Shown: in pieces, positions 5,736-62,872 of the stretch
Layout of the letters: each line of letters opens with the position of its first letter
How positions within the stretch are numbered: position 1 is the stretch's first letter
Assembly (NCBI GenBank): GCA_963640995.1
Contig: CAVICI010000003.1
Location: 6,754-70,753, forward strand
Direction: 5' to 3'
DNA: 64,000 nt
Origin: Dialister hominis
Lineage (GTDB): Archaea; Thermoplasmatota; Thermoplasmata; Methanomassiliicoccales; Methanomethylophilaceae
Notes under the pieces: model-generated
Database searches by the model: none
What the model was told of the DNA's origin: nothing
The model's input: only the letters and a program-made list of their open reading frames with translations
Made by a program: the position numbers and the translations under genes

Positions 5736-5921
5736 AAAGAACTCGGAATCCGTGTATCCAAAGCGGAAAAAGAAGTCTGAATCCGTGTATTGAATGGCTG
5801 AAAAGAACTCGGAATCCGTGTATCCAAAGCGGAAAAAGAAGTCTGAATCCGTGTAAGTTAGTGGCAAAAAGAAGTCTGAATCCGTGTAAGTTAGTGGCAA
5901 AAAGAAGTCTGAATCCGTGCA
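5736..5921 (+). repeat. Six-unit tandem array, 33-bp period, 21-bp conserved core AAAGAA(G/C)TC(T/G)GAATCCGTG(T/C)A with 12-bp variable spacers
   Basis: Cores start at 5736, 5769, 5802, 5835, 5868 and 5901. Confidence 0.95.
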
Positions 5922-5952
5922 ATCTAAATATGGCCAGATTATTCCATTATTC

Positions 5953-7317
5953 ATGGGAGTCGAACTGAAGAGAAAAGCATACCAAAAATTGCTTGATTGG
6001 AAGAAGGAGAGCAACGGCAGATCGGCATTGCTAATCAATGGTATGCGCCGTGTGGGAAAGAGCCATCTGGTGAAACTATTTGGCAAAAATGAGTATAGAA
6101 GTTGCCTGGTGGTAGACTTCTCCACTTTGGATCCAGAACTTCTCGACATATTCTATAGGCACTCGTACGATTTGGACATCTTTTTCGAGAAGCTCTCTAC
6201 CTTTCACGGAGTCAGGCTTTATGTCCGTGACAGTCTCGTGATCTTCGACGAAGTGCAGATGTATCCGCGTGCAAGGCAGATGATCAAAAGGCTGGTTGAA
6301 GATGGGCGTTTCGACTACATTGAGACAGGCTCATTGTTATCAATAAAAGCCAACGTTCAAGATATATTGCTCCCGTCTGAAGAAGAAGGATTCGATCTTT
6401 ATCCCTTGGATTTTGAAGAGTTCCTCTGGGCCATGGGGAACGAGACGGCTGGGCCGTACATGCGCAAATGTCTCGAAGAACTACGTCCGTTGGATGTCGG
6501 GCCTCATAAGATGCTAATGAACCAGTTCCGGAGATACATGCTAGTTGGGGGGATGCCCAGCGCGGTTTCAACATTTGTGGAAACCAAGAGCTTCGAGGAT
6601 GCTGAAAAGGAGAAGAGGAAGATTCTCAAGATTTATCGGAACGACATAGGGAAATTCGCAGGAGACTACAAAGGATCTGTAGACCATGTCTTTGAGAGCA
6701 TCCCAGGCCAGTTGAACAAGAAAGAGAAAAGGTTTCTTCTGTCCAGTATAAGCAAGGATGCACGTACGCGCCAGTACGAAGATGCGTTCATGTGGATTGT
6801 TGATGCGATGGTTGCGAACATATGTATCAATGCCACTGATCCGACCGCAGGTCTGTCTATGAGCGAGGACTCATCGACGATGAAGCTGTATCTGGCCGAC
6901 ACGGGTTTGTTAGTGACTATGGCCATGGACATGGGCGTTGCGACTGAAGAGGATATTTACAAAGGCCTCCTACTGGACAAAATCAGCATCAATGAGGGCA
7001 TGTTCGCAGAGAACATCACTGCCCAGGCTCTGCGCTCGACCGGCAAGAAGCTGTTCTTCTACTCGCGCTATGCGAAGCGGGCAGAGGACGGGTCCGTGAA
7101 AGGCCAAACACTTGAGATAGACTTCCTGATCCGCAAAGGACGGGACATCTGCCCGATTGAGGTCAAATCTTCGAAGTGGGTCAGGCACGACTCTCTCGAC
7201 AGGTTCAATGCGATGTTCAAGAAGCGTCTGGGGAAGTCCTACATCCTGTGCACCAAGGACCTCTCGGTCGAAGGGAACATGGTCTTCCTGCCATTGTACA
7301 TGGCATTCCTCTTGTGA
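5953..7317 (+). CDS. AAA_14/DUF4143-type ATPase with C-terminal PD-(D/E)XK-like motif (subfamily A)
   Basis: GMRRVGKS Walker A, FDEVQ Walker B, ETGS, GGMP, KLYLADTGLL, EIDF...PIEVK; TATA-like TCTAAATA at 5923. Confidence 0.85.
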   Translation: MGVELKRKAYQKLLDWKKESNGRSALLINGMRRVGKSHLVKLFGKNEYRSCLVVDFSTLDPELLDIFYRHSYDLDIFFEKLSTFHGVRLYVRDSLVIFDEVQMYPRARQMIKRLVEDGRFDYIETGSLLSIKANVQDILLPSEEEGFDLYPLDFEEFLWAMGNETAGPYMRKCLEELRPLDVGPHKMLMNQFRRYMLVGGMPSAVSTFVETKSFEDAEKEKRKILKIYRNDIGKFAGDYKGSVDHVFESIPGQLNKKEKRFLLSSISKDARTRQYEDAFMWIVDAMVANICINATDPTAGLSMSEDSSTMKLYLADTGLLVTMAMDMGVATEEDIYKGLLLDKISINEGMFAENITAQALRSTGKKLFFYSRYAKRAEDGSVKGQTLEIDFLIRKGRDICPIEVKSSKWVRHDSLDRFNAMFKKRLGKSYILCTKDLSVEGNMVFLPLYMAFLL

Positions 7318-7321
7318 CTCG

Positions 7322-8149
7322 TCATCCAGACTTCTGCAGCAGGGCCTTCGACTCCCTGTATATCTCATCCATGGGCCACGTGTCGATGTAGTCCGGCGAC
7401 GCCTGCAGGATCCTGAAGTGCATGTAGTCGGCGAAATCCTTCGTGGCCTCGTCGAACTCCTTCCTGTCCTCCAGGCCTGTGTCGATCTGCACCACGGATG
7501 TGTAGCCGCACATCTCCAGGATCTCCTTGATGGTCTCCTTGGACTTGCCGGTCACGCCCTTCATCATGTCGGATGCGCCGATGAAGTCCTCCCAGTTCGT
7601 CGCCACGGCAGGAGTGAACAGCATCACGCCGGTGAACTCCTTGATGAGCCTTTGGTATCCTTTCAGCCCTCCGACGGCCACGCCTATGCAGTCGTCGCAG
7701 ACCCTTCCTTCCCGGTCCCTGAACGTCGTCACGGGGTAGATCAGCTCCTTCTCCGCCCATTTGGAGATGTCCCATCCGTAGTTGCCGCACATGCCGTAGT
7801 AGAGGGCGCATGCGTCTACCCTCCCCTGCATCATGATCAGCTCGTCCTGGATGAAGGCCATCAGGTCCTTGGGCTCCGCGTGGAGGCCGAGGTCGTTCAT
7901 CCTGATCACCACCTTGAACCGGCCGTCCCTCAGGGAACCGCCGTTCAGGAAGGTCCACTCGTCCATCACCGTGTACTTCAGCCCGCAGGCGTCCATCTTG
8001 CGCCTGAGGCTCTTGTTCGGCTCGGTGTCTATGACGATGATGTCCTTCTCTTCCGGGTCTGCATGCAGGCTGTGGATCAGCTCGTCCTCCAGCATGGGGC
8101 AGGCCACTGCGGCCAGCACCCCTTCGGTCCTCGGCCCCTGTCCATCCAT
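7322..8149 (-). CDS. DUF1638-like protein
   Basis: ACPMLEDE, LGLHAEP, YGMCGN and DDCI motifs. Confidence 0.7.
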   Translation of the reverse strand: MDGQGPRTEGVLAAVACPMLEDELIHSLHADPEEKDIIVIDTEPNKSLRRKMDACGLKYTVMDEWTFLNGGSLRDGRFKVVIRMNDLGLHAEPKDLMAFIQDELIMMQGRVDACALYYGMCGNYGWDISKWAEKELIYPVTTFRDREGRVCDDCIGVAVGGLKGYQRLIKEFTGVMLFTPAVATNWEDFIGASDMMKGVTGKSKETIKEILEMCGYTSVVQIDTGLEDRKEFDEATKDFADYMHFRILQASPDYIDTWPMDEIYRESKALLQKSG

Positions 8150-8244
8150 AATGTCGTTTCCTCCTTTCCGTGCCCGCGAAGGCGCAGCAACGCTTCATGA
8201 TTCCGACGGCAAGCGATATAACCTTTGGCTTGTTGACTTCGTGC

Positions 8245-9024
8245 ATGGCATTCGCAGAGGGGGAGACGGTCTTCCTGGAGGATTCTAACGGCAAGCGCCT
8301 GTTCGTGAAGGTCGACTACGGGATGGTCAAGGTCCCTTCGCTCGGAGCCATAGACGGCTCCCGCTTCAAGGACCTGGACGACGGGGACAGGCTGACCATC
8401 GTGGGCAGGAGCTACACGGTGTTCCGCCCGGGGGTCCTGGAGCTAATGGGCTCCCTGGACCGCGGAGCGCAGATCATCTCGTCCAAGGACGCCGCGACGA
8501 TCCTGATGCACTGCGACATCAAGTCCGGCGACAGGGTCATCGAGGTCGGCGCCGGCTCGGGAGGGCTGACGACCGCCCTCCTGCATGCGGTCGCGCCCGG
8601 AGGGCACGTCCATACCCTGGAGCTCCGGGAGGAGTACGCCAAGAAGGTGGAGAAGAACGTGTCCCGCACAGGCCTGGACAGATATTGGTCATATTCTATA
8701 GGAGATGCGAGGGAGATGGACGCAGGCATCGGGTGGCAGGCGGACGCCCTGACCATGGACATGCCCGACCCTTGGCTGGCGCTCCCCAACCTGGAGAAGC
8801 ACCTGAAGAACGGCGGCAGGGTGTGCGCATACGTCCCCAACATGAACCAGGTGGAGTCCATCGTGGTCCTGATGAGGGAATCCGGGTATGCAGACGTCTG
8901 CGCCCTGGAGAACATCCAGCGCTACCTGGAGGTCCACCCCGGAGGCGTCAGGCCGTCCTTCGACACGCTCGGCCACACGGGGTACCTTGTGTTCGGCAGG
9001 AAGAGGGCTCCGAAGGCGGAATGA
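8245..9024 (+). CDS. trmI: tRNA (adenine-58-N1)-methyltransferase
   Basis: RGAQII..KD, EVGAGSG, DMPDPW and GHTGYL motifs. Confidence 0.9.
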   Translation: MAFAEGETVFLEDSNGKRLFVKVDYGMVKVPSLGAIDGSRFKDLDDGDRLTIVGRSYTVFRPGVLELMGSLDRGAQIISSKDAATILMHCDIKSGDRVIEVGAGSGGLTTALLHAVAPGGHVHTLELREEYAKKVEKNVSRTGLDRYWSYSIGDAREMDAGIGWQADALTMDMPDPWLALPNLEKHLKNGGRVCAYVPNMNQVESIVVLMRESGYADVCALENIQRYLEVHPGGVRPSFDTLGHTGYLVFGRKRAPKAE

Positions 9025-9156
9025 CCCGTTCCGGATGCGGATTCTCGCGATTTCTGTGCGGATTCCGCAGAACTTGGGAATCAAAGGGATTCGAGTTATC
9101 ATTAGTATTATATAGGATGAGCTTATCCCAACTAATTACAAGCTTAAACTATCCAC

Positions 9157-9233: not shown

Positions 9234-9343
9234 TGGACTTCATGAGCGATCGAACGGCGGATCAAGTATGAGGAAAGCATGCAGAGCATTTTCTCAAGAA
9301 ACGATTTCCAGCTGACCGGGCTGGGCAAAAGTAGGTGAATCAC

Positions 9344-9610: not shown

Positions 9611-9614
9611 GCGA

Positions 9615-16038: not shown

Positions 16039-17472
16039 ATGGCAAAGAAAGACACGCTCAAAGCGCTCCTGAACAGGGGCGTCAGCGAGGAGATCGCCTC
16101 GCTCGTGCTCACCAAGTACAGCTCCATGACCGCCATCAGCGAAGCCGGGGCCGATGCCCTGGTGGAGATGGGCCTCAGCGACGAGGACGCCGCATCCCTG
16201 ATCGCCAAGATCGGGAAGAGGACCTCGTCCGCCAAGGTGAAGAAGGAGGTCGAGGAGATCGTCCCCGTCGAGAAGATGGAGGAGGTCACCAACTGGTACC
16301 AGTACTCCGAGGGGGAGCTCAGGCTCAAGGGCATGATGGAGAGGCTGGGGCTGAAGCTCCCCATGAAGATCTTGGTGGACATCGCCAAGCGCATCGAGCA
16401 TGCCGACCTGGACGACGAGACCTGCGAGGAGCTCCTGACGGAGGCCAACAGGCAGTACACCGCCCACCTGATGGACCAGAACGAGTCCGCGGGAGTCATG
16501 GCGGCGCACTCAATCGGAGAGCCCGGTACGCAGATGAACATGCGTACTTTCCACTACGCGGGAGTCGCGAACGTGAACGTCACCCAGGGTCTGCCCAGGC
16601 TGATCGAGATCGTGGATGCCAGGCGCGTGCCCAGCACACCGTCCATGGAGATCCCCCTCACCGGCACGGCGGCCCAGGACGAGAACATCGCGAAGTACGT
16701 GGCGTCCAACATCGAGATGACCTCGCTCATCGACGTGGCGAGCATCGAGACGGACCTCACGAACATGAGGCTCGTCATCTCTCCAGATGCAGGGAAGATG
16801 GAGGACAAGGGCATCACCATCGAGGAGATGCTCGAGAAACTGAACAAGGTCAAGGCGGTCCGCGGGCTGGCCAGCATATCGGGCTACGACATCATGGTCA
16901 CAGCCGATGAGCCGTCTTACAAGAAGCTGCAGACGATGTACGACGCCGTGAAAGGCGCGAAGATCAAGGGGATCGACAACATCACGCGTGCCATCCTCTC
17001 CAAGACCGACGGGGCTTGGAAGATCATCACCGAAGGCAGCAACCTCAAAGAGGTCCTGAAGGTCGAAGGCGTGGATGCTGAGCATGTCATGACGAACAGC
17101 ATCCTGGAGGTGGCGGACGTCCTCGGAATCGAGGCAGCCAGAAAATCCATCATCCGCGAGGCCATGATGACCCTCGGAGAGGCAGGTCTGGATGTCGATG
17201 TCAGGCACATCATGCTCGTCGCCGACCTCATGACCAACGACGGATACGTCAAAGCAATCGGAAGGCACGGAGTGTCCGGAAAGAAGTCCTCGGTACTTGC
17301 CAGGGCGGCTTTCGAGATCACGGCCGCGCACCTTCTGCATGCGGCGATGGTGGGCGAGGTGGACCACCTTGAAGGAGTCACCGAGAACATCATCGTCGGA
17401 CAGCCGGTCACGCTTGGTACCGGTGCAGTAAACCTTATTTACGAACCCAAGAAGAAGGGGGATGAAGAATGA
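16039..17472 (+). CDS. rpoA2: RNA polymerase subunit A'' (Rpo1C) with N-terminal extension
   Basis: AAHSIGEPGTQMNMRTFH, GLPRLIEI and ARAAFE motifs. Confidence 0.95.
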   Translation: MAKKDTLKALLNRGVSEEIASLVLTKYSSMTAISEAGADALVEMGLSDEDAASLIAKIGKRTSSAKVKKEVEEIVPVEKMEEVTNWYQYSEGELRLKGMMERLGLKLPMKILVDIAKRIEHADLDDETCEELLTEANRQYTAHLMDQNESAGVMAAHSIGEPGTQMNMRTFHYAGVANVNVTQGLPRLIEIVDARRVPSTPSMEIPLTGTAAQDENIAKYVASNIEMTSLIDVASIETDLTNMRLVISPDAGKMEDKGITIEEMLEKLNKVKAVRGLASISGYDIMVTADEPSYKKLQTMYDAVKGAKIKGIDNITRAILSKTDGAWKIITEGSNLKEVLKVEGVDAEHVMTNSILEVADVLGIEAARKSIIREAMMTLGEAGLDVDVRHIMLVADLMTNDGYVKAIGRHGVSGKKSSVLARAAFEITAAHLLHAAMVGEVDHLEGVTENIIVGQPVTLGTGAVNLIYEPKKKGDEE

Positions 17473-20160: not shown

Positions 20161-25818
<5,658 letters not shown>

Positions 25819-29573: not shown

Positions 29574-30740
29574 ATGAGCATGAACTGCAAGCTGATGCAT
29601 CGCGATGAGGAAGTGGCTTCTCTGATTCTCGACGACCATCAGGGAAGCATATTCGATGTCGTATCAGTGCGTAGCACGGATTTGCTCCCGACAGGAACTG
29701 CCCCCAGGGGAGACATCGATGTAAAGCGTCTCAAGGAATGGTGGTCATCCAGGACCATTCCGACGAGCCGTTCAGGACTGAGATTCCTTCTGGACAGTCT
29801 CGATATGGAAATCACCACTGAGCTTGCAGCCAAGTCGATGGGCCTCAGTCTGACAGATCAGTATTGGATGAAGCCTGAGGGTGCTGCTGTATCCTGGGAT
29901 TCGGTGAACTTCTTTGACAATGAGTTCTCGGATGATGTCGGAGATCTGCTATTCGGACTCGAGATCCGGAGAGGCGAATGGGACCTGGTTTCGCCCGATA
30001 CCACTTCGGACGGCGTCCTGAAGAAGAGATGGAAGATCCTCGACGGCAATCGCTGCCTCATCAAGGCGGGCGAGGCGCCGTACCTCCAGGAGCCGTTCAA
30101 TGAAGCCGCTGCGGCGATGATCGCCGATTCGATGGGGATCGACCATGTGGAGTACTCGCTGATCGAGTACGAGGGCGCACCCTGCAGCGTCTGCAAGAAC
30201 ATGATCGACGGGACGGACGAGCTCATATCGGCGCATCAGGCAGCACGCTCGGAGATCCAAGAGCCGGGCGTGCCTCTGTACGACCATCTTGTCGCATGCT
30301 GCTCGCATCACGGCTTGGACATCGTCAAGGATCTGGACAGGATGATCGTGTTCGACTACCTCATCGGCAACATGGACCGTCATCTCAACAATTTCGGCAT
30401 CATACGTGATGCGACGACCCTGGAGTGGAAGCGCTTCGCCCCGCTGTACGACAACGGGACGAGCATGGGCTGCGACTGCTATCCCGACAGGCTGATGTCG
30501 GACGCGGGCCTGGATGCGAAACCGTTCAGCCCCTACTTCCCGAGGCAGATGGAGCTCGTCCGCGACACAAGGTGGATCGACATGGGTGCTATCCGTAAGG
30601 GAATCGGCAGGGCATCGAAGGTGTTCGATGCCGTCCAGCGGTACCGCGAGGACGGCCGCGCCGATGCCGTCCGCGGGTTCCTGATGTCCCGCGCGGACGA
30701 CATCGAGGCATGGATCGAGAGGCGCAGTGGAAACGCTTAA
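29574..30740 (+). CDS. HipA-like kinase-domain protein
   Basis: DGVLKKRW, FDYLIGNMDRHLNNFG and APLYDNG motifs. Confidence 0.8.
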   Translation: MSMNCKLMHRDEEVASLILDDHQGSIFDVVSVRSTDLLPTGTAPRGDIDVKRLKEWWSSRTIPTSRSGLRFLLDSLDMEITTELAAKSMGLSLTDQYWMKPEGAAVSWDSVNFFDNEFSDDVGDLLFGLEIRRGEWDLVSPDTTSDGVLKKRWKILDGNRCLIKAGEAPYLQEPFNEAAAAMIADSMGIDHVEYSLIEYEGAPCSVCKNMIDGTDELISAHQAARSEIQEPGVPLYDHLVACCSHHGLDIVKDLDRMIVFDYLIGNMDRHLNNFGIIRDATTLEWKRFAPLYDNGTSMGCDCYPDRLMSDAGLDAKPFSPYFPRQMELVRDTRWIDMGAIRKGIGRASKVFDAVQRYREDGRADAVRGFLMSRADDIEAWIERRSGNA

Positions 30741-30741
30741 C

Positions 30742-30786
30742 TCTGAATCCGTGTGAATCCACACGTTCCTTAAATCTGAATCCGTG
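30742..30786 (+). repeat. Two copies of TCTGAATCCGTG, 33 bp apart
   Basis: Copies at 30742 and 30775; same core and period as the array at 5736; TTTATATA box at 30791. Confidence 0.85.
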
Positions 30787-30824
30787 ATTATTTATATACT
30801 CCAGACGTTCAGGTCATCATTACG

Positions 30825-32195
30825 ATGTAGCTCCGCAGGAAGGCATACGACAAGCTCCTCCGCTGGAAAGAGGAGAGCGCCGGGGCATCGGCGATGCTGA
30901 TCAACGGCGCGAGGCGCGTGGGCAAGAGCTATCTGGCCGAGGAGTTCGCCAGGAACGAGTACCGCGATCACGTCGTCATCGACTTCTCCAACACGAGCGA
31001 CAGCATCAGGGCGGTGTTCGACGGGTACAACGGCGACATCTCCGATTTCCTGAGCGCATTGTCCACGGCGGTCGGCAGGACGCTGCCTGTCCGCGAGTCG
31101 GTCATTGTCTTCGACGAGGTCCAGCAGTGCCCTCGCGCCAGGCAGATGATCAAGCATCTGGTGAATGACGGCAGGTATGACTACATCGAGACCGGCTCGC
31201 TGATGTCCATAAAGTCGAACATAGCGGACATTGTGATCCCTTCCGAGGAGGATGACCTGCACCTCTTTCCTCTGGATTTCGAGGAGTTCCTGTGGGCCAT
31301 GGGCAAGGACGCGACAGTCCCGTACCTGAGGGAATGCCTGGAGCAGCTCCATCCGGTCGGAGATGCGATGCACAGGACGGTCATGGGGCTGTTCAGGAAG
31401 TACATGCTCGTCGGAGGGATGCCGCAGGCTGTCGCAGAGTTCGCGGAGACGGGGAGCTTCGAGAAGGCGGAGGCCGTCAAGCGCAGGATCCTGGCAGTCT
31501 ATCGCAAGGACATCGCCAGGTTCGCCAAGGGATACGAGATGAGAGTCACAGGGATATTCGACAGGATCCCTTCGGAGCTGAACCGCAAAGAGAAGAAGTT
31601 CCGCATAACCAGCATCGGCAAGAACGCCCGCAACAGGGACTTCGAGGACGCGTTCATGTGGCTGGACGACGCGATGATCGTGAACCCGTGCGTGAACGCC
31701 ACCGATCCCCGCATGGGGCTGTCCATGAGCCTGGACCTGGCCAGGCAGAAGCTGTACATGGCCGACACGGGGCTGCTGGTGACTCAGTGCCTCGAGGACG
31801 ACGAGATGACGGGGGAAGAGATCTACAAGTCCCTGCTCCTCGGAAAGCTGGGGATAAACGAGGGGATGTTCGCAGAGAACGCGGTGGCCCAATGCTTCGT
31901 GGCCAACGGCCGCAGGCTGTTCTTCTACTCCCGCAGCCCCTCGGCCGGCCAGGAGAGCGGTTCCGGGGAGGAAGCCTGGGAATCGTCGATCGAGATAGAC
32001 TTCCTCATACGCTCGGAGCGGAAGATCTGCCCTGTGGAGGTGAAGGTCTCCGACCGTGTGAGGCACGATTCCCTGGACAGGTTAAGGGAGAGGTTCGGGA
32101 AGGCGCTGGGGCAGCCATACATCCTGTGCACGAAGGACGTAGGCACGGAGGACGGGATCGTCTATCTTCCGCTGTACATGGCCGCCGTGCTCTGA
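30825..32195 (+). CDS. AAA_14/DUF4143-type ATPase (subfamily A); in-frame TAG at codon 2 (pyrrolysine read-through, nonsense allele, or internal start at 30894)
   Basis: ATG TAG CTC CGC AGG AAG GCA TAC aligns with ELKRKAY of the 5953 paralog; GARRVGKS, FDEVQ, EIDF...PVEVK. Confidence 0.8.
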
Positions 32196-36169: not shown

Positions 36170-36238
36170 AATCCTACAATTACCACATCAATAATCCTAC
36201 AATTACCACATCAATAATCCTACAATCCCCACACCATT
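36170..36238 (+). repeat. Three-unit 23-bp tandem repeat AATCCTACAATTACCACATCAAT (third copy degenerate)
   Basis: Units at 36170, 36193 and 36216; followed by TTTAAATA and TTTATATA boxes. Confidence 0.92.
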
Positions 36239-36267: not shown

Positions 36268-37524
36268 ATGAGGTCGTATATTCCTAGGATAGTGGAGACG
36301 AGAATCGATAAGGCTCTTTCACTATTTGGAGGGGTTCTGATCGAGGGTCCGAAATGGTGTGGAAAAACTACGACTGCGAAGAGATATGCAAAGAGTGAGA
36401 TATACTTCGAAGATCCTGATGCATGGCCCGACATCGAGTCAGCGATAAAAACGAAGCCTTCTCGTATCCTCAAGGGTGCCAATCCCAGGCTGATCGATGA
36501 GTGGCAGGAATTTCCTCTTGTTTGGGATTCCGTGAGGATGGATATAGATCGCCGTGACGAGGAAGGCCTCTACATACTGACCGGTTCCACCACGATCGAT
36601 TGGACAAAAGTGCGGCACACCGGTACAGGACGTATTGCCAGGGCAAGGATGAACACGATGTCGTTGTACGAATCGGGATTATCTACAGGCGAAGTAAGGC
36701 TGGCCGATTTGTTCGATGGTCACGATATCGATGGGCTGTCATCGATCTCAATCGAAGAGATGGCAGAGATAATAGTGAGAGGCGGATGGCCCAGAGGTGC
36801 CGGCAAACCGCTGGCCGATGCGCGTCAGATCGTCAAGGACTATTGCGAATCCATAGTAAACTCGAGTAAGCTGGGTGGAAGGGTCGTAGACGGAGACATA
36901 ATGAGTCAATTGATGAGGTCATTAGCTCGGAATACCGCAACTTCGGCCGCAGATACAGTCTTGATCCAGGATATAAGTCGCAATGATGAGACACCGATGC
37001 ACATCAACACTTTGAGAAGCTACGAATCCGTTCTGCGCAATTGTTTCGTCACAGACGATCTGAAAGCATGGAGTCCCAAATTACGTTCAAAGACGGTATT
37101 GAGGCTGTCCGATACCCGTCACTTCTGCGATCCTGCAACAGCCGCATATTTTCTAGGCGCGTCGCCCAGCAGTCTCGTCGATGACCTCAACACATATGGC
37201 TACCTGTTCGAATCTCTGGTCGTCCGCGATCTCAGGATATACGCCGCGGCACTGGGCGGAGAAGTCCGCCACTACCATGATAGCTACGGCCTCGAAGCGG
37301 ATGCTGTGATCCTTCTGGACGATGGTCGCTGGGGCGCCATCGAGATCAAGCTGGGGTCAGGCTATGTGGACGATGCCGCGAAGAACCTGAGGAAGCTGGC
37401 CGAGCGCGTCGACACAGACGTCGCGGGCAAGCCGTCTTTCCTGGCCGTCGTCACATGCACCGCATACGCTTACCGCAGAGAAGACGGCGTCTACGTGGTC
37501 CCAATCGCATGCCTCAGGGACTGA
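36268..37524 (+). CDS. AAA_14/DUF4143-type ATPase (subfamily B)
   Basis: GPKWCGKTT, IDEWQ, GGWP, FESLVVRDL, EADA...WGAIEIKLG. Confidence 0.85.
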   Translation: MRSYIPRIVETRIDKALSLFGGVLIEGPKWCGKTTTAKRYAKSEIYFEDPDAWPDIESAIKTKPSRILKGANPRLIDEWQEFPLVWDSVRMDIDRRDEEGLYILTGSTTIDWTKVRHTGTGRIARARMNTMSLYESGLSTGEVRLADLFDGHDIDGLSSISIEEMAEIIVRGGWPRGAGKPLADARQIVKDYCESIVNSSKLGGRVVDGDIMSQLMRSLARNTATSAADTVLIQDISRNDETPMHINTLRSYESVLRNCFVTDDLKAWSPKLRSKTVLRLSDTRHFCDPATAAYFLGASPSSLVDDLNTYGYLFESLVVRDLRIYAAALGGEVRHYHDSYGLEADAVILLDDGRWGAIEIKLGSGYVDDAAKNLRKLAERVDTDVAGKPSFLAVVTCTAYAYRREDGVYVVPIACLRD

Positions 37525-39081: not shown

Positions 39082-39396
39082 GGGAATTAACCAAGAATGT
39101 TACCTCACACAAAGAGATGACAGCAGTTCGGCGTGCAAAAGCACAACGGAAGCTTGGAAGTGTGTTCCGCCCAGCAATGGGTCGGTTCGGAGAAATCCGA
39201 GTCAGACAGGCACACCTGGCTACGATTTAAAAATCGCGGTTGGCGTACGAATATCAGCAAAAGCATCACGTATAGCACCTGGCGTTAAAAAACCGGGGTG
39301 TTGTAAATGGTGAAGATCCTGTTGGCGCAGCTCTTTGCAAAAAAGCGAAGCCCAGTGCCAAGAGTGACGCTCGTTGCAAAAAGCAATGCAATCCCG

Positions 39397-39950
39397 AAAA
39401 GGAAAAAGAAGCTCCATGTAAAAAATGAAGCTTCTGTAAGCTAAGCTCCTGGGGTAAAAAGCTAAGCTCAAAAAGCTAAGCTCCTAGGGAAAAAAGCATA
39501 GTGATCCTGTAAAAGGAAAAAGAAGCTCCATGTAAAAAATGAAGCTTCTGTAAGCTAAGCTCCTGGGGTAAAAAGCTAAGCTCAAAAAGCTAAGCTCCTA
39601 GGGAAAAAAGCATAGTGATCCTGTAAAAGGAAAAAGAAGCTCCATGTAAAAAATGAAGCTTCTGTAAGCTAAGCTCCTGGGGTAAAAAGCTAAGCTCAAA
39701 AAGCTAAGCTCCTAGAAAGGAAAAGAAGATCCATGTAAAAAGTGAAGCTTCTGTAAGCTAAGCTCCGAGGGAAAAAAAGCAAGGCTCCTGTAATAGGAAA
39801 AAGAAGCTCCATGTAAAAAATGAAGCTTCTGTAAGCTAAGCTCCGAGGGAAAAAAAGCAAGGCTCCTGTAATAGGAAAAAGAAGCTCCATGTAAAAAATG
39901 AAGCTTCTGTAAGCTAAGCTCCGAGGGAAAAAAAGCAAGGCTCCTGTAAG
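39397..39950 (+). repeat. Six-copy composite tandem repeat (spacings 114, 114, 89, 78, 78 bp)
   Basis: AGAAGCTCCATGTAAAAAATGAAGCTTCTGTAAGCTAAGCTCC at 39407, 39521, 39635, 39724 (variant), 39802 and 39880. Confidence 0.95.
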
Positions 39951-40069
39951 GGAAACAGACTCCATGCAAATAACGGCAATAGGAATGCTGATATGGCTCT
40001 GATTAATCAGGCAAACGGGCGAAAGCACGTTTGTTGTCAGACAACACCGCCTAGGAAACTAGGCTCAGT

Positions 40070-43632: not shown

Positions 43633-44496
43633 TCAAGAGGATCGGCGCCGCCTCATCCCGATGACCGCAATCACGAAGAAAGCGGCAGTTAGGCCCAGGA
43701 CCAGGGCCATGCTCGAAGCCCCATTGAACGAGAATCCCCCTAGGGACATGTCGAACCCCATGTCGCTCCTGAAGCCTGCCAGGGCCTCCGGGGAGGCGCC
43801 TGCGAACACAGAGTCCAGGGCATCTCCCGCCAGGCTGTTGCGGAACAGCGATGCCATGTGGCTCGCGGGGACGATCCCGGAGACGGCCTGCATCCCCGAG
43901 GGCATTGTGCCCGTGGGCATGTATATGCCTGCTAGGAACCCGATCAGGACGCTGACGACGGTGAAGAACCCCGAGAACGCGCCTGTGCTCCTGAAGAACG
44001 ATGTGATCGCATAGATTATGATGGATCCCGACAGGGAGGACGGGACCAGCAGCACGGCGGTCGCCGCCAGCCCGGATGCGCTGAGGGGGCATCCCGTGGC
44101 CGCAAGGTATGCGACGCAGACTGCCATCGCCATGGCGCTCATGGCCAGCCCTACGATGAACGTGCTGAGGATGTACCCGCAGGCGATCTCCGAAGAAGGC
44201 ATCGGAGTCACCAGGACGTCCCTTATCCTGCCCGTGGACCTGTCCTCGACCATCGTCTGGAGGGAGCCTGCGGATGCCGTCACCGGGACTATGCCGAGTA
44301 TCCCCGCCATCACCCATGCGTCGATGAGGTTTGACATGCCGTTCATGTCCGGGTAGGACTCGATCAGCATGTTCCTGAGGAACAGGAGGTACAGCATGAT
44401 GACGATGATCACCGCCATCATCGAGAACACGACCGCGGCGCGGTCCCTGAAGTAGCAGAGGACGTTCCTCTTCGCGAGCGACACGGCCCCGTTCAT
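43633..44496 (-). CDS. ABC-2 type transporter permease
   Basis: Six TM segments; FRDRAAVVFS and GFLAGIYMP motifs; overlaps the ATPase stop. Confidence 0.85.
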   Translation of the reverse strand: MNGAVSLAKRNVLCYFRDRAAVVFSMMAVIIVIMLYLLFLRNMLIESYPDMNGMSNLIDAWVMAGILGIVPVTASAGSLQTMVEDRSTGRIRDVLVTPMPSSEIACGYILSTFIVGLAMSAMAMAVCVAYLAATGCPLSASGLAATAVLLVPSSLSGSIIIYAITSFFRSTGAFSGFFTVVSVLIGFLAGIYMPTGTMPSGMQAVSGIVPASHMASLFRNSLAGDALDSVFAGASPEALAGFRSDMGFDMSLGGFSFNGASSMALVLGLTAAFFVIAVIGMRRRRSS

Positions 44497-51410: not shown

Positions 51411-51548
51411 ATGTTCAAGAAGTCCGAAAAGAAACCCAATCCAAGGGATGTTCCACCGTTCGGTGGTCTCGAATTCATTACCGATGAAGAGATAATGAAG
51501 AACATCAACGACTATCCATATGTGATGGGAAAGCTCAAAGATTGCTGA
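51411..51548 (+). CDS. 45-aa small protein, putative antitoxin partner of Doc
   Basis: MFKKSEKKPNPRDVPPFGGLEFITDEEIMKNINDYPYVMGKLKDC; upstream TATATAT and GGTG; below the ORF-track cutoff. Confidence 0.5.
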   Translation: MFKKSEKKPNPRDVPPFGGLEFITDEEIMKNINDYPYVMGKLKDC

Positions 51549-51981
51549 TGTGTGTGTTTGATCTCAGCCACATCTCGATTTCTTCTCCGCTGATTTTTCC
51601 CCAAGCTACGTTCTTTATGAACATGAATGTTTCATAATCGTCATTTGGTTCATACCCCCCAGTTCTTAGAATGGCAACTGCTAATTGAAATGCAGTTCTT
51701 TTGTTTCCCTCGACGAACGGATGGAAGTTGGCGATATAGTCGATTGCCATTGCGGCTTTTGAGAAGCAATCTGGGCAAGTTTCAACCCACTCGCAGAAGC
51801 CCTCAATCGCAGCTGGGCTTATGAGTGCATCTTCCAGACCTTCTTCCCGTTCTTCGTTAGAGTTCAAAATCACCATGCGATGTATAGCCAAGACGTGCTG
51901 GATGCACGAATTGTAAGCAGCCTCGCGGTTATATGACGCAATTAATTTCTGTTCTTTTTTTGCTTTCAGTTTCTCAAACAT
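51535..51981 (-). CDS. Fic/Doc-family (death-on-curing-like) toxin
   Basis: HPFVEGNKRTA Doc-type motif; AT-rich. Confidence 0.85.
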   Translation of the reverse strand: MFEKLKAKKEQKLIASYNREAAYNSCIQHVLAIHRMVILNSNEEREEGLEDALISPAAIEGFCEWVETCPDCFSKAAMAIDYIANFHPFVEGNKRTAFQLAVAILRTGGYEPNDDYETFMFIKNVAWGKISGEEIEMWLRSNTHISNL

Positions 51982-52079: not shown

Positions 52080-52365
52080 TAGTATTGCACCTCGCAGAAC
52101 ACGTTGATCGTCTCGTCCGGGGACATCAGCGGCCAGAACTTGAAGTAGGCGAGGCTCTCCAGGAACGTGTCCGCATCCGTGCCCCTGCCGAACAGCTCCG
52201 AGTATTCCGGCTTGGTGTCGAAGTTGATGGATATGACGTTCTGGTAGCTCTTGCGTGCGAACTCCAGAACGGAATATGTCTTCCCGATTCGGTGGCATCC
52301 TTTGACGAGGGGCGCCGTCTTCGGGCCGTTCTCCTTTCAGCGGAAGAATTGTTCCCGGCCTTCTT
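52080..52365 (-). pseudogene. Decayed N-terminal remnant of an AAA_14/DUF4143 ATPase (subfamily A)
   Basis: Minus frame reads R*KENGPKTAPLVKGCHRIGKTYSVLEFARKSYQNVISINF...VFCEVQ; TGA at 52337-52339 replaces the conserved Trp. Confidence 0.7.
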
Positions 52366-52397
52366 ATCCCTGGAGATGGATATATGTGTACACATCG

Positions 52398-52454
52398 TTT
52401 GCAAACATTGACATTGTTTGCATGTTTTATTTGCAAACATTGACATTGTTTGCA
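52398..52454. repeat. Two copies of TTTGCAAACATTGACATTGTTTGCA (32-bp period, internally palindromic)
   Basis: Copies at 52398 and 52430, upstream of the ATPase remnant. Confidence 0.9.
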
Positions 52455-52503
52455 AAAAACAACGGGGAAACAGTCGTTTTCAAGCAGCTTCATCGTTTCC
52501 GCA

Positions 52504-56109: not shown

Positions 56110-56184
56110 GCCGCCGTGGCTAAGGGGTATAGCGACGCCTTGGTAAGGCGTAGGTCGTGGGTTCGATTCCCATCGGCGGCTCCA
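56110..56184 (+). tRNA. tRNA-Thr(GGU)
   Basis: GCCGCCG/CGGCGGC acceptor stem, ACGCC-TTGGTAA-GGCGT anticodon arm, GGTTCGATTCC, encoded CCA. Confidence 0.95.
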
Positions 56185-56232: not shown

Positions 56233-56720
56233 TCATGGTCCGAGGCACCCGATCGGCACAACGATGACTCCGTCATCGCGCTTGTAAGTGTATCTGGTCG
56301 ATGTGAGCACCATTTTGAACACCGGGGGCTTGCCATCGCCCTTGACGATCTTGTCTTCGAGGCGGTTGAGGTTCTTGGCCCCGTCGTCGGCGTACCCTCC
56401 TCCGAGCTTCATCTCCACAGCGCCCCATCTGCCGTCTCTCGTTTCCACTATCGCATCGACCTCCAGATCGTTGCTGTCATGGTAATGTCCGACCGTGCCT
56501 CCGAAGGGCTCCGCATAGGCTCTGAGGTCCCTGTCGCAGAGCGATTCGAAGACAGCTCCGAATGCCTGAAGGTTTTCCATCAGCCCGTCTGCGTCAAGGC
56601 CGAGGAGCGATGCTATCAGCGACGGGTCTGCCAGCTGCCTCTTCGCGGATTCTCTGACAGGTGTCTTGGAGCGTGCCGGGCTCCCGCAAGGGGGCACATC
56701 TTCGCAGACGTAGAAAATGT
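56233..56720 (-). pseudogene. C-terminal remnant (DUF4143 plus nuclease-like tail) of a subfamily B ATPase
   Basis: RSKTPVRESAKRQLADP, FESLCDRDL, EVDA...WGAVEMKLG; ATPase domain absent. Confidence 0.8.
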
Positions 56721-58045: not shown

Positions 58046-58134
58046 ATCATCCCAAACGTGCGATAAACGACCTTTCACATCATCCCAAACGTGCGATAAA
58101 CGACCTTTCACATCATCCCAAACGTGCGATAAAC
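58046..58134 (+). repeat. 33-bp tandem repeat ATCATCCCAAACGTGCGATAAACGACCTTTCAC x2.7
   Basis: Units at 58046, 58079 and 58112. Confidence 0.95.
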
Positions 58135-58185
58135 ATACATCTGGCTTCGATTGGATTTAATACGTCTTTTGTTATTATGAAAATC

Positions 58186-59520
58186 ATGTTCAGACGCAAG
58201 GTCCGTGACGAACTCAAGGAGTGGAAGGACAAGTGGTCCAGAAGATATGCTGTCCTCGTCGAAGGCCCTCGTCGCGTGGGGAAGACCACTCTGGTGAAAG
58301 AGTTTGTCGCGTCAGAGTATAAGACGTCTATATTCATCGATTTCTCGGAGAACAATCCTAAGTTGATTTCCATGTTTGAGGTCAGCAGTTCCTTGGACGC
58401 GTTCTTTAAAACCTTGCAGGACTGGACTGGTGTCGCATTGTATGAGCATGAGAGCGCAATAGTGTTCGACGAGGTGCAGCTTTATCCGAAAGCCAGGCAG
58501 ATGATCAAGCATCTGGTCAAAGATGGCAGGTACGACTACATAGAAACCGGCTCCCTTATTTCCATAAGGCAGAATGTCAAAGACATACTGATTCCCTCTG
58601 AAGAAATGTCCATCCAGATGCGCCCTATGGATTTCGAGGAGTTCATGTGGGCTGTAGGGGCTCCGTTCCCGATGGATTATCTGAAGGAATGCTTCCGTAA
58701 TGGAACTCCTGTGGCCCGTGTCATCCACGAGGAGATTATGCGCAGTTTTGTCACGTATATGATTGTCGGAGGGATGCCTCAGAGCGTGGATGAGTACATC
58801 AGGTCGGGTAGCTTTTCTCAGGTCGATATGGTCAAAAGGGAAATACTCAAGATTTACGCGTCAGATCTTTCTAAAGTGCGTGAGCCGACCGGGAGCAAGG
58901 CTCGTGCGATATTCAAGAAGATACCTGCCATGCTGTCTAGTCACGAGAAGACCTTTTCGCCGTCGGAGTTTAAAGCGGATTCGAAAAGTAGAGATTATTT
59001 GAACGCGATAGACTGGCTGTCTGAGTCCAAGATTGTGAATATATGTTATCGTTGCACCGATCCCGATCCGGCTCTGGATCTGTATCTGGATGCCAATTCA
59101 TTCAAAATCTACATGGCTGACACAGGTCTGCTGATGGCGGCAGCGTTCATGTCCAATGCAGTCAAGGAAGAAGCATATGACATGGTGCTGAATAACAAGC
59201 TCTCTAGCAACCGCGGGATGATGTTCGAGAACGTCGTAGCCCAGGAGCTGGCAGCTCACGGACATGCGCTGGCCTTCAGCAAGCGCAGGTCGGAGTCCAA
59301 CACATACGGGTTGGAGGTAGATTTCATATTGGCCGACGGGAAGCATCTGATCCCGGTCGAAGTGAAGTCGGGCGAGAAGTCTTCCAGCCACAAGTCCTTG
59401 GACGTCTTCATGGAGACATACGGCCGCAAGATCGAGAGGGCCTACGTCGTGCATTCCAAGAACCTGAGGGTTGACGGCAAGGTCGTCTACATCCCGATAT
59501 ACATGACGATGTTCATCTGA
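58186..59520 (+). CDS. AAA_14/DUF4143-type ATPase (subfamily A)
   Basis: GPRRVGKTT, FDEVQ, ETGS, GGMP, EVDF...PVEVK; alternative start 58177. Confidence 0.85.
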   Translation: MFRRKVRDELKEWKDKWSRRYAVLVEGPRRVGKTTLVKEFVASEYKTSIFIDFSENNPKLISMFEVSSSLDAFFKTLQDWTGVALYEHESAIVFDEVQLYPKARQMIKHLVKDGRYDYIETGSLISIRQNVKDILIPSEEMSIQMRPMDFEEFMWAVGAPFPMDYLKECFRNGTPVARVIHEEIMRSFVTYMIVGGMPQSVDEYIRSGSFSQVDMVKREILKIYASDLSKVREPTGSKARAIFKKIPAMLSSHEKTFSPSEFKADSKSRDYLNAIDWLSESKIVNICYRCTDPDPALDLYLDANSFKIYMADTGLLMAAAFMSNAVKEEAYDMVLNNKLSSNRGMMFENVVAQELAAHGHALAFSKRRSESNTYGLEVDFILADGKHLIPVEVKSGEKSSSHKSLDVFMETYGRKIERAYVVHSKNLRVDGKVVYIPIYMTMFI

Positions 59521-59867: not shown

Positions 59868-60368
59868 TCACTTCTTGGGGCTGTACAGCCCGACGACGGT
59901 GCTATGCGCTAGGACATGCCCCATCATGGCGAAGTGGAGCTCGTTCAGGAGGAACCCTCTCTTCAGGCCGAGCTCGGTGTCGAGCGCATATACGGTGAGG
60001 GTGTATCTGTGCTCCTTGTCCGGCGGGGCGGGACCGCCGTAGCCTGTGGCCTCCTCCACCGTGTTCGGGGAAGCTATGCTGTGCCAGCTGTTGCACCCCT
60101 CGGTGAAGTCCTTGGACTTATGGGACTCCCCCTCCCTCAGCTCGGTGCGCTTCAGGTCGCAGAGCGTCCAGTGGACCCAGTTGAACCCGCTGACCGCCAC
60201 CGCGTCGTAGTCATCCATGATGACGGCGAAGCTCTTCGTGCCCTCGGGGGCGTCCTCTATCCTCAGCGGGACGGACAGTCCCGGCATGCCGTTGACGGTC
60301 ACGTCGCCTTTGGCTCCGAACCTGTCTTCGATCCATCCGTCCTTTATCGCGTTGCATATGACCTTCAT
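59868..60368 (-). CDS. YbhB/YbcL (PEBP) family protein
   Basis: DDYDA, WVHW, YGGPAPP and HRY...YALD motifs. Confidence 0.9.
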   Translation of the reverse strand: MKVICNAIKDGWIEDRFGAKGDVTVNGMPGLSVPLRIEDAPEGTKSFAVIMDDYDAVAVSGFNWVHWTLCDLKRTELREGESHKSKDFTEGCNSWHSIASPNTVEEATGYGGPAPPDKEHRYTLTVYALDTELGLKRGFLLNELHFAMMGHVLAHSTVVGLYSPKK

Positions 60369-60378
60369 TTTAATCGCC

Positions 60379-61425
60379 TCAGCAGATCCTCGGGACGGGG
60401 TCTCCCGCGGGGGCCTCCAGGATCCTCCTGCCTCCGACCTCTGTCCTCATGACCACTCTCTCGGGCCCGCTCACCGCATGGCCTATGATTGCGGCATCCT
60501 TCCCTTCAGGTGTCCTCCTGATGGCCTTGAGGACCTCCTCCGCCATCTCGGGGACCACTCCGATGACAGCTTTCCCCTCGTTCCCTATGCTCAGGGCATC
60601 GATTCCAAGCAGGTCGCAGGCGTTGACCACGCCGTCCCTCAAGGGGATGGCGCTGTAGTCGATCTCCATCCCGACATGGGATTTGGAGCACCATTCGTTG
60701 AGCGTGTTGGCCAGGCCTCCGCGGGTGGGGTCCTTCATGGCCACGATCCCTCCGGCCTTCAGGCCCTCGGCGATCATCTTGTTGAGAGGCACCACATCGC
60801 TCTGGACCTCGCTCTCGAACCCGTATCCCTCGCGGAACGAGAGGAGCGCGATCCCGTGGTCGCCCATGTATCCCGAGACTATGATGGCGTCCCCCGGCCT
60901 CACGCTGGAGTCCGTGCACCATCTGTTCTCCACCTTCCTGTACTCGGATGCTTTGGCGAGGTCCGAGTCGAGGTAGGGGGACCTCTTGCCGATGGCGGAT
61001 GTGGCCATGACCATCTGGTCCACCGCTCCGGCCTCGACGACCTTGGTGTCGCCGGTGGCGATTGGGACCCCGCATCCCGCGGCGGTCTTCCCCATGGAGT
61101 CCATGACCTTGTCCACGGTGTCTATGTCCAGGCCCTCCTCCATGATGACGGAGCAGGCCAGGGCGATCGGCGATGCGCCCATGACAGAGATGTCGTTGAC
61201 CGTCCCCGCCACAGAGATCTTCCCGATGTCCCCTCCGGGGAAGAAGAGCGGCTTGACGGTGTGGCCGTCGATGGTGAACACCACATCGTCCACGACTGCG
61301 GAATCGTCCATGGAATCGAGCGGGACGTCCGCGTTCATCTTCGGGAAATGATTGGTGATATGCTTGGACAGGAACTCCTGCATGAGCTCTCCGCCTGCCC
61401 CGTGGTTCAGGACTACCTTCGACAT
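60379..61425 (-). CDS. hypE: Hydrogenase maturation protein HypE
   Basis: HGAGG, GTVND, GDTKVV and DPTRGG motifs; C-terminal PRIC. Confidence 0.95.
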   Translation of the reverse strand: MSKVVLNHGAGGELMQEFLSKHITNHFPKMNADVPLDSMDDSAVVDDVVFTIDGHTVKPLFFPGGDIGKISVAGTVNDISVMGASPIALACSVIMEEGLDIDTVDKVMDSMGKTAAGCGVPIATGDTKVVEAGAVDQMVMATSAIGKRSPYLDSDLAKASEYRKVENRWCTDSSVRPGDAIIVSGYMGDHGIALLSFREGYGFESEVQSDVVPLNKMIAEGLKAGGIVAMKDPTRGGLANTLNEWCSKSHVGMEIDYSAIPLRDGVVNACDLLGIDALSIGNEGKAVIGVVPEMAEEVLKAIRRTPEGKDAAIIGHAVSGPERVVMRTEVGGRRILEAPAGDPVPRIC

Positions 61426-61513
61426 GCGGGGTGAATCATGGAACGGGGATATCATTGTTGGGTCTGGCGCATTGTTCGACGGTGCGGGGGCGGGAATCGA
61501 GGGGCAGCCGTAT

Positions 61514-61581
61514 CCCTCAACTCACCCAATGAAAATACCCTCAACTCACCCAATGAAAATACCCTCAACTCACCCAATGAA
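61514..61581 (+). repeat. 24-bp tandem repeat CCCTCAACTCACCCAATGAAAATA x2.8
   Basis: Units at 61514, 61538 and 61562; abuts ATATAAAT box. Confidence 0.95.
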
Positions 61582-61609
61582 TATAAATGAAGACGTATTT
61601 TTTCTACTC

Positions 61610-62872
61610 ATGGCGCAATATCGCCCACGTATGGTTGATGACGAAATCGAACGTAAGATGAAGGTTTTCGGTGCCGTTGTTATCGTAGGGCCAAAGTGGT
61701 GTGGAAAGACAACTTCCGCGAGGCGTCTATCCAAGAGTGCTCTGTTCATGCAGGATCCTGATAAGGAGTCATTGTACAAGGAAACCGTGAAGGAGAAGCC
61801 TTCTGTGCTCCTCAGAGGGAACAAGCCAAGGTTGATTGATGAGTGGCAAGAGGCGCCAAGACTTTGGGATGCAGTCAGGTTCGCTGTCGATCAGGGTGCA
61901 GGTCCAGGGGCATTCTTGCTCACCGGTTCGGTTACACCATCGAAAGATTCTGTGATGCATACTGGAACTGGGAGAATCGTTAAGGTCGTCATGAGGACCA
62001 TGAGTCTCTTCGAATCCGGAGATTCGACGGGTGAGGTCTCGTTGCTCGATCTGTTTAACGGCAGTTCGGACATCTCCGGAGAGTCACGTCTGGACTACGC
62101 ATCCATGGCGGAAGTCCTTGTACGTGGGGGGTGGCCCGCATCGATTGGAAAGACACGGGAAGGGGCCAAAGATCTAATCAAAGGCTATTGTGAATCGGTT
62201 CTTGATTCAGAAATAAATCTGCCCGAAGGCCGTCGGCGTGATAGGGAGCGGATGAGGTGCATTCTCAGATCGCTTTCAAGGCATACTGCAACCGGCGTTT
62301 CCAACACTACGGTAATGGCTGACATCAATGCATCTGCGAATGAGTCGACGATAAACACTGTATCAGATTATATCTCCGCCTTGAAGAGCATATATGTCGT
62401 TGAAGATTTGAATGCGTGGAATCCAAAATTGCGCTCCAAGACGGCGATAAGGACCTCTGATGTCAGGCATATGTCTGACCCTGCTATTGCGACCTATTTC
62501 TTGGATGCGGGTCCAGAGGATCTGGAAGCGGATCCGAACACATATGGCCTTCTATTCGAGTCTTTGGTCATCAGAGACCTTAGAATCTACTCACAGAAAA
62601 TCGGGGGCACAGTCCATCATTATCGGGACGCTGACGGGCTGGAGGCGGATGCCATAGTCCATCTCGATAATGGTCGCTGGGCGGCCTTCGAGGTGAAGCT
62701 GGGCGCCCATGCGGCTGACGAGGGCGCCAAGAGCCTCAAGAAGCTCGCAGGGAAGGTGGACGGGGACATCACGAAGCTCCCTGCGTTCCTGGCGGTCATA
62801 ACGGCTTCGGGGTATGCGTACACCCGCGAGGACGGCGTCCACGTCATCCCGCTCGGATGCCTGAAGGACTGA
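61610..62872 (+). CDS. AAA_14/DUF4143-type ATPase (subfamily B)
   Basis: GPKWCGKTT, IDEWQ, GGWP, FESLVIRDL, EADA...WAAFEVKLG. Confidence 0.85.
   Translation: MAQYRPRMVDDEIERKMKVFGAVVIVGPKWCGKTTSARRLSKSALFMQDPDKESLYKETVKEKPSVLLRGNKPRLIDEWQEAPRLWDAVRFAVDQGAGPGAFLLTGSVTPSKDSVMHTGTGRIVKVVMRTMSLFESGDSTGEVSLLDLFNGSSDISGESRLDYASMAEVLVRGGWPASIGKTREGAKDLIKGYCESVLDSEINLPEGRRRDRERMRCILRSLSRHTATGVSNTTVMADINASANESTINTVSDYISALKSIYVVEDLNAWNPKLRSKTAIRTSDVRHMSDPAIATYFLDAGPEDLEADPNTYGLLFESLVIRDLRIYSQKIGGTVHHYRDADGLEADAIVHLDNGRWAAFEVKLGAHAADEGAKSLKKLAGKVDGDITKLPAFLAVITASGYAYTREDGVHVIPLGCLKD

Follow-up and report, generated by a model that had tools for sequence, protein, structure and literature searches.

Direct-repeat arrays upstream of PDC-S01 ATPase-nuclease genes: candidate cognate operators in archaea and bacteria

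PDC-S01 is an ATPase fused to a PD-(D/E)XK domain, for which validation is described as pending (PMC12988326). According to the accessible parts of the literature, it ranks fourth in frequency among defence calls in prokaryotes and is the top single locus in rumen genomes, but neither a substrate nor a validated function is known for it (PMC12988326, PMC13356809); the family is treated as a defence candidate still awaiting validation (PMC12988326, PMC13356809, PMC3424549, PMC4158269), its DUF4143 domain has been placed in the PD-(D/E)XK superfamily (PMC3424549), and S01 is not named in the accessible part of the Payne preprint. The genes analyzed here belong to this same protein family (PDC-S01, COG1373, PF13173+PF13635). 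They lie in a window of 64,000 nucleotides (nt), the whole stretch of DNA under study (contig CAVICI010000003.1, hereafter C3, positions 6754-70753), in a 2.22-Mb genome of the Methanomethylophilaceae assembled in 157 contigs (hereafter the own genome, G000). Its archaeal housekeeping genes and the names given to close homologs suggest a member of the Methanomassiliicoccales. Seven copies had been reported in the window by a first-pass annotation, six of them with a 5' end and a short direct-repeat array upstream; each locus was recovered in the present analysis (Table 1). As far as its accessible text goes, the PDC-S01 literature covers the protein only, with no mention of a cognate array, a subfamily period or a recognition residue (PMC12988326), and the openly accessible literature on DUF4143, COG1373, PDC-S01 and STAND ATPases, to the extent of its available text, contains no description of these arrays. 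New here are a second period class, the rule that links period to clade, the rule that links residue to base, a relic repeat unit and orphan arrays.

The layout of these loci resembles several described systems. Cdc6/Orc1 proteins on origin recognition boxes have the AAA+ and winged-helix architecture in common with the window proteins (2qby, 1fnn); Cdc6/Orc1 boxes and Rep iterons are direct-repeat boxes at fixed spacing and, in iteron replicons, the direct repeats are located beside the gene of their binding protein, just as the arrays here adjoin the gene of the putative one. Plasmid Rep proteins autoregulate as well. Unlike Cdc6 and Rep, the window proteins contain a fused nuclease, are encoded by dozens of chromosomal copies with differing boxes and are rare on plasmids, and no unwinding element or replicon context was observed at their loci. 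The Ss-LrpB and Lrp switches also comprise three regular sites, two or three turns apart, in their own control region and beside the transcription factor B recognition element (BRE); as described in the accessible part of the source, these sites differ from the boxes of the window in being palindromes occupied by protein dimers, and the protein in question is unrelated and contains neither an ATPase nor a nuclease (PMC2995911). The STAND antiviral ATPases (Avs and bacterial NLRs) share the STAND-Cdc6-Orc AAA+ domain, the winged helix and restriction-endonuclease effectors (bioRxiv 2022.07.19.500537, accessible part), and the winged helix is common to STAND and Cdc6/Orc proteins in general (the same preprint and PMC8195603, in their available text). 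Neither Pfam nor the structure models detected C-terminal sensor repeats (TPR, LRR or WD) in the window proteins, which are 418-454 aa long and end in the nuclease motif; unlike Avs and NLR proteins, they appear to employ the winged helix for reading DNA, as Cdc6/Orc1 does.

The period of the array follows the protein clade

Altogether, 52 loci of the family were identified in the own genome by tblastn, and 61 matches to PF13635. The upstream test included the 43 loci with 220 nt of upstream DNA, after exclusion of six without a 5' end and three with too little DNA. A repeat score of at least 14 was reached in 33 of these 43 regions, compared with 15 of the 1459 control genes, the starts of which are approximate and come from a crude gene calling (1598 genes), and 8 of the 209 low-GC intergenic controls (Fisher p 6e-25). 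The scan of homologs against controls that had been proposed for this DNA thus reveals enrichment throughout the genome. No such array had initially been seen before any housekeeping gene; arrays are nevertheless not unique to this family, and the strongest among the controls include those of two genes of the Schlafen-HATPase-winged helix-turn-helix (wHTH) type and one ATPase_2 gene. Given that some of the top control scores precede other winged-helix or ATPase genes, the control set is conservative. The two Schlafen(AlbA_2)-HATPase_c_4 genes (G000 C35:8130-9260 and C12:25903-27306; L398, L396), one of which has a wHTH match, are both preceded by direct repeats with a 21-bp period and are possibly another single-gene family to which this operator logic applies.

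The usual array consists of three boxes (19 of 36 arrays; range two to eight copies, with a whole unit of 23-34 bp). The boxes are ~15 bp long, non-palindromic and located directly upstream of the TATA region: the last box starts at position -46 (median) relative to the start codon, and TATA-like words are found directly 3' of it, near -28 and about 21-34 bp before the start codons, in agreement with the initial observation that the arrays end near a TATA-like box. The characterization of the arrays as helically phased is only roughly correct because 23 and 33 bp correspond to ~2.2 and 3.1 turns, not to whole turns. About 40 different boxes are present in this one genome, and phased clusters of the 15 cores tested were found only upstream of family genes. 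Comparison of orthologs shows that boxes are retained and spacers changed; within arrays, conservation is 0.76-0.94 for the box and 0.52-0.65 for the spacer, a partly circular comparison to which little weight is attached here. The arrays comprise 12 near-perfect and 93 imperfect ones. A CRISPR (clustered regularly interspaced short palindromic repeats) array was ruled out on the basis of the total unit of 23-34 bp, the two to eight copies and the lack of an Rfam CRISPR repeat match; the Rfam search over the window yielded three tRNAs and nothing else.

The tree of 42 paralog rows consists of clade I (17 rows; ~420 aa, GPKWxGKT type), clade II (24 rows; ~445-460 aa) and one long-branch row beside clade I. 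Periods were counted for arrays scoring at least 12. With this restriction, the period is 22-24 bp in 17 of 17 clade I arrays of the own genome (one of these was scored at 44) and 32-34 bp in 19 of 19 clade II arrays (p 1e-10). The congeners were sampled in 80 regions around 150 listed of 356 PF13635 matches, with seven partial or short ones dropped; among the matches listed, 38 of 45 clade I loci passed the threshold, all 38 with a period of 22-24 bp, and so did 30 of 42 clade II loci, 29 of them with a period of 31-35 bp. Bacterial relatives of gene A (Bacillota, Bacteroidota and Spirochaetota) possess arrays in 67 of 77 cases, with a period of 32-34 bp in 64 of the 67, compared with 4 of 73 in the downstream control. 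In a fresh set of 124 clade I loci, of which 14 were dropped and 93 were left after dereplication at 85%, arrays were found in 86 of the 93, with a period of 22-24 bp in 85 of the 86. The relation of repeat period to protein clade thus holds in the own genome, in congeners, in bacteria and among fresh loci, and the period, ~23 or ~33 bp, is set by the clade of the protein in these comparisons. Two further groups in the own genome give weak signals for period windows that were picked post hoc, after inspection of the data: a third PDC-S01 subfamily (ten genes, 3/10 checked) tends towards palindromic elements with a period of 38-41 bp, and the corresponding tendency of the PDC-S27-like genes (six, 2/6 checked) is towards palindromes with a period of 28-30 bp.

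Residue 249 and the base sequence of the box

In the discovery set of 44 clade I loci, an association between Asn at position 249 (in the numbering of gene G) and a phased CAAT was spotted by eye before the unbiased scan, in which it ranked first among 20,062 column-by-4-mer tests (9/11 vs 1/33); it was replicated in the fresh set (11/28 vs 3/65, p 7e-5). The boxes of 121 of 136 dereplicated arrays were then aligned from DNA only, blind to the protein. In this alignment, the 5' part of the clade I box is constant (roughly CCAA/CAAA) and a triplet varies, being most commonly CAC with Asn, CCG with Asp, CGG with Glu and GGA with Lys at residue 249; column 13 of the box is C for 31 of 33 Asn proteins and G for 21 of 24 proteins with Asp and 8 of 13 with Glu. 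In the structure models, residue 249 lies where the third helix of the predicted winged helix, the recognition helix, starts. Asn changes 15 times on a tree from which the winged helix was omitted, and independent pairs (n=9) on this tree gave 5.7 in the predicted direction and 0.1 in the opposite one (median p 0.03). The raw mutual information of residue 249 and column 13 is the highest among the 25 pairs listed; the same measure with average product correction produced artefacts and was discarded.

Between the held-out C84 (Asn) and its 61% identical relative L139 (Lys), the 23-bp units differ in nothing but a 5-bp core, and the unit of C84 farthest from the gene retains the Lys-type core, the trace expected from a switch of specificity followed by homogenisation of the array. 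Two genes on plasmids also fit the rule, one of Bacteroides ovatus with Asp and CCG and one of Collinsella aerofaciens with Asn and CCC. In clade II, Arg271 is associated with CGTG (18/29 vs 1/33). Thus, in these sequence comparisons, the variable core of the clade I box changes with residue 249. The period fixed by clade, the conservation of boxes while spacers drift and the covariation of residue and base at the recognition helix all support the original proposal of a cognate binding array for each protein, and binding of each protein to its own array, taken alone, appears very probable.

Proteins, loci and neighbouring genes

The proteins encoded by the five long open reading frames (ORFs) of the window, all single-gene units, match AAA_14 and DUF4143 above the Pfam cut-offs (5/5). 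Full-length matches to PDC-S01 were obtained with PADLOC, for A, B and F to PDLC04786/04792 (E <=1e-98) and for C and G to PDLC04790 (E <=4e-55), with values down to 1e-109 in the family; none of the NCBIfam families matches the five ATPases, and a PDB sequence search found nothing at E <0.06. The structure models of G and A (predicted local distance difference test, pLDDT, 92.6 and 84.9) are most similar to two ATPases of archaea, 2qen and 2fna (Z 14.8/13.7 and 17.2/15.8), followed by chains of NLR and Avs5 proteins (9jap, 8dgc) and of Cdc6/Orc1 (2qby, 1fnn); the matches span ~300 residues. The modelled order of an AAA+ core, a helical domain and a winged helix is that of a STAND/Cdc6-Orc-type protein, and a PD-(D/E)XK tail follows. 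The solved relatives are ~15% identical to the window proteins, and their chains are without the C-terminal nuclease. To our knowledge, no DNA target is known for them. Weak helix-turn-helix Pfam matches occur in a clade III relative, and an Atlas search with the winged-helix region gave a best score of 0.88, which is no more than a lead.

The Walker A Lys is present in 42 of 42 paralogs, and the E...D...(E/D)xK motif is kept (E345 in 40/42, D347 in 42/42, E361 in 37/42 and K363 in 37/42, with four Arg); the initial description as AAA_14 plus DUF4143 with a PD-(D/E)XK-like tail stands. In gene G, which contains all four of these nuclease residues, the models place the AAA+ domain at ~1-130, the helical domain at ~131-200, the winged helix at ~205-290 (helices at 212-224, 232-241 and 248-260, with Asn249) and the nuclease at ~310-420; in gene A, a winged-helix helix is predicted at ~272-284.

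Table 1. Features of the window and further subfamily loci (window coordinates unless a contig of G000 is named)
Feature	Position	Strand	Description
Array A	5736..5919	+	six GAATCCGTG boxes, exact 33-bp spacing: 5746, 5779, 5812, 5845, 5878, 5911
Gene A	5953..7317	+	clade II PDC-S01, 454 aa; predicted AAA+, helical, winged helix, PD-(D/E)XK tail
Array B	30741..30787	+	two TCTGAATCCGTG boxes 33 bp apart, then TTATTTATATA
Gene B	30825..32195	+	clade II; stop = codon 2; next in-frame ATG 30894
Array C	36170..36233	+	three AATCCTACAAT boxes, 23-bp spacing: 36170, 36193, 36216
Gene C	36268..37524	+	clade I PDC-S01, 418 aa; residue equivalent to 249 is Asn
Remnant D	52080..52372	-	5' fragment of clade II gene; in-frame stops before Walker A
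Array D	52398..52456	-	32-bp period; CAAACAATGTCAATGTTTGCAAA at 52452 and 52420
Remnant E	56233..56715	-	3' third of clade I gene; without array; adjoins tRNA-Thr (56110-56184)
Array F	58046..58134	+	three CCCAAACGTGCG boxes, 33-bp spacing: 58051, 58084, 58117
Gene F	58177..59520	+	clade II PDC-S01; start 58177 or 58186
Array G	61514..61585	+	three CCTCAACTCACCCAAT boxes, 24-bp spacing: 61515, 61539, 61563
Gene G	61610..62872	+	clade I PDC-S01, 420 aa
Third PDC-S01 subfamily	C1:92728, C89:2370, C124:1909, C13:40072 and six more
PDC-S27-like	C20:15427, C3:78430, C3:1506 and three more

The periods of 33, 33, 23, 33, 24 and 32 bp initially read before the six copies that have a 5' end were reproduced, for A (5.6 copies of 33 bp), C, F and G by Tandem Repeats Finder and for B and D by motif search and autocorrelation; array B, missed by the former program, comprises just two GAATCCGTG boxes (30745, 30778). 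The repeats were held to differ between distant paralogs, and the boxes are indeed mostly distinct, but genes A and B, with 57% identical proteins, have the core TGAATCCGTG in common. Likewise, the loci and the two remnants stand as described, but copy 30825 was counted among five full-length genes: given that its start reads ATG-TAG and that of the G013 ortholog (95% identical) reads ATG-CAG, it is not cleanly full-length. A terminator-like hairpin of proS lies directly 5' of array A, separated from it by a (CTTTCT)5 run (5692-5722) that is also present in the eight-unit allele of this array, and a TATA-like TAAATAT follows the array at ~5925-5931. Corresponding elements are TTTAAATA at ~36237, 3' of array C, and TATAAA at ~61582 in array G. 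The core of array F is preserved upstream of the G046 ortholog (71% identical), and the spacers differ. Remnant D was assigned to the family by hmmsearch (E 3.5e-15), and the site of remnant E contains a whole gene in G046.

Conflict-type genes accumulate at the sites of copy B and remnant D. A HipA-like kinase gene (29574-30740) directly precedes copy B, with a PDC-S27-like gene (Walker A region read by eye) between B and gatD in G046, and a Fic/Doc-like gene (51535-51981) directly follows remnant D; at the latter site in G046 (C3 ~43900-44400, L365), short 11-bp tandem runs of the ATCACATTAGC type replace the gene. Outside the window, box pairs with a 33-bp period but without a called ATPase gene occur before an MMPL gene (G000 C17:411-3011) and in an intergenic region (C8 ~16800-17020); these are possible orphan arrays or trans targets. 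At G000 C87 ~3039-4325, a clade II gene without a 32-34 bp array is flanked on either side by the same GGAATTTCC...GGGATTTCCAGAAA element, which on the downstream side is close to the gene; this is the sole bracketing case observed. A 570-bp nested repeat of AAGCT-containing units (39397-39970; 114 bp x2.8, perfect, then 78 bp), ORF-free and low in GC, is located between methyltransferase and MatE genes and has no linked ATPase gene; the 180-200 bp that precede it (~39083-39290) are found again in G005 (two contigs) and in G013.

Explanations of the arrays and their meaning

Among the explanations considered, the one we favour, with a probability of roughly 0.68, is that the protein binds its own array via the winged helix, that AAA+ stacking sets the period and that the complex autoregulates the nuclease, the task of which is probably defence or addiction. 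Each copy would be a self-contained module of a PDC-S01 (COG1373-type) STAND/Cdc6-like protein and its own operator. The winged helix would read the box, and ATP-bound AAA+ domains would stack head to tail, with a one-unit footprint setting the period, as for initiators on iterons and origin boxes. The assembled complex would cover the BRE/TATA region (-35/-10 in bacteria), limit its own transcription and hold the intact nuclease at a low level, and distinct boxes would keep most paralogs in one cell from cross-regulation. The nuclease would most likely defend the cell against invading DNA or maintain the module by addiction. The modules would enter intergenic sites by horizontal transfer and be frequently lost by deletion; long perfect arrays would be secondary products of slippage, which may re-homogenise an array after a change of specificity. 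Given that the last box abuts the TATA region, an autoregulatory operator is the best fit among the four functions offered in the first-pass annotation.

Several results weigh against this explanation. No clear array (score <12) was found for 7 of the 43 family genes. A first test of independent pairs for residue 249 was underpowered (three pairs, p 0.25), the Asn-vs-Asp/Glu and Lys pair tests remained above 0.05 (p 0.125 and 0.25), and the clade II association of Arg271 with CGTG is not independent of the tree (pair test p 0.5). By permutation-normalised mutual information, five column pairs outranked 249/13 by z. In a sliding-window partial correlation of box similarity with protein windows, the winged helix was at or near the top with a z of only ~2.3; other protein regions tied with it, and the signal was weak in both clades. 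Boxes directly upstream of TATA could, by analogy, activate and not repress: as stated in the accessible text on Lrp regulators, three-site arrangements are able to do either (PMC2995911). Finally, in the available part of a preprint, one PDC-S01 that was assayed in E. coli B is outside the systems that protected against T4, T5 or T7 (bioRxiv 2024.09.26.614923).

An unlikely alternative is a selfish mobile unit, with the array as an iteron-like loading site and an ATPase-nuclease that cuts and moves or copies its own cassette. The copy number of 2-61 within one genus (2-46 PF13635 matches per genome in 18 congeners), the minimal flanks, the Cdc6/MuB-like fold and the derivation of STAND ATPases from transposase ATPases, as given in the accessible part of PMC8195603 (after Zhang 2016), are compatible with such a unit, and so is the occupancy of syntenic sites, the inspection of which had been suggested: all 13 congeners for which sequence is available have an empty site A; within 1.5 kb, 15 congeners lack the gene at site G and 14 lack it at site B, and in the nearest relatives these two sites are filled. 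However, none of 31 genes has its own box within 400 nt downstream (best 9/11), on which basis a transposon or insertion sequence with two ends was rejected; there are no near-identical paralogs (maximum identity 61%, median 21%); and the family is rare on plasmids and phages, with 12 matching records among 72,556 from the former and 14 among 50,697 from the latter. Overall, the gains and losses are better explained by a costly gene that is repeatedly acquired and deleted than by active transposition. Moreover, arrays outlast lost ORFs: G005 (C18 ~24800-25000, L383) keeps four A boxes and the promoter at site A, and G046 (C3 ~58050-58230, L372) keeps perfect C boxes and TATA at site C, the ORF being gone in both, a pattern that looks deletion-like and not like that of unit excision. 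In G013, only the last 40 codons of gene C are left. The empty-site genomes are too diverged for reading a target-site duplication. As for a Rep-family initiator, there is no Rep Pfam match in the window, and the loci sit between chromosomal housekeeping genes. The mobile-unit proposal of the first-pass annotation thus finds little support.

Similarly improbable is a role of the array in licensing or assembling an ATP-driven, site-specific nuclease, whose complex on the box clusters would serve as a self-mark or as a tripwire released by disturbance of host transcription or replication, with autoregulation being incidental. The intact nuclease and Walker motifs, the fast turnover of specificity that is typical of conflict systems, the fold shared with NLR and Avs5 switches and the classification of the family as a defence candidate (PMC12988326, accessible part) would suit this function, but a self-mark is expected across the chromosome and not, as found, only before the cognate genes, and the fixed place beside TATA is what a transcriptional operator requires. 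Slippage-prone contingency repeats, or neutral variable-number tandem repeats that tune the promoter by copy number and are not bound by the protein, are very improbable and already largely refuted. Site A does have alleles of six and eight units with identical proteins (the latter in L026 and L382, whose array sequences are the same and are taken as one case), and several arrays are near-perfect, but most consist of three boxes with diverged spacers that are unable to slip, the period is fixed by clade across domains of life, and residue and base covary; the copy-number switch suggested initially is thus secondary at most. Least credible is a separate host regulator. Archaeal Lrp proteins bind near promoters at two- or three-turn spacing (PMC2995911, accessible part), but such a regulator would have to deal with ~40 box types per genome that move with the gene among archaea and several bacterial phyla, are non-palindromic and covary with a residue of the downstream protein.

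Returning to the proposed autoregulated, array-bound nuclease, a predicted cognate site, a spacing rule and a residue-to-base rule for each member make the family directly testable: they indicate the DNA to be employed in binding, cleavage and structural work, the residue to swap and the importance of native promoters in phage assays. A more far-reaching and doubtful extension is that PDC-S01 and its relatives constitute a vast library of orthogonal, ATP-assembled, sequence-specific nucleases, in which the array also arms the nuclease as an invader tripwire or the origin of a one-ended selfish element, the subfamilies act as molecular rulers (direct repeats of 23 and 33 bp, palindromic ones of ~39 and 29 bp) and targets are readable from a few recognition-helix residues; if true, this would link Cdc6/Orc initiators to STAND immune switches in evolutionary terms. 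The rules described here may account for the coexistence of ~60 paralogous nucleases in one 2.2-Mb genome, and the family might supply orthogonal regulators for use in archaea and gut bacteria.

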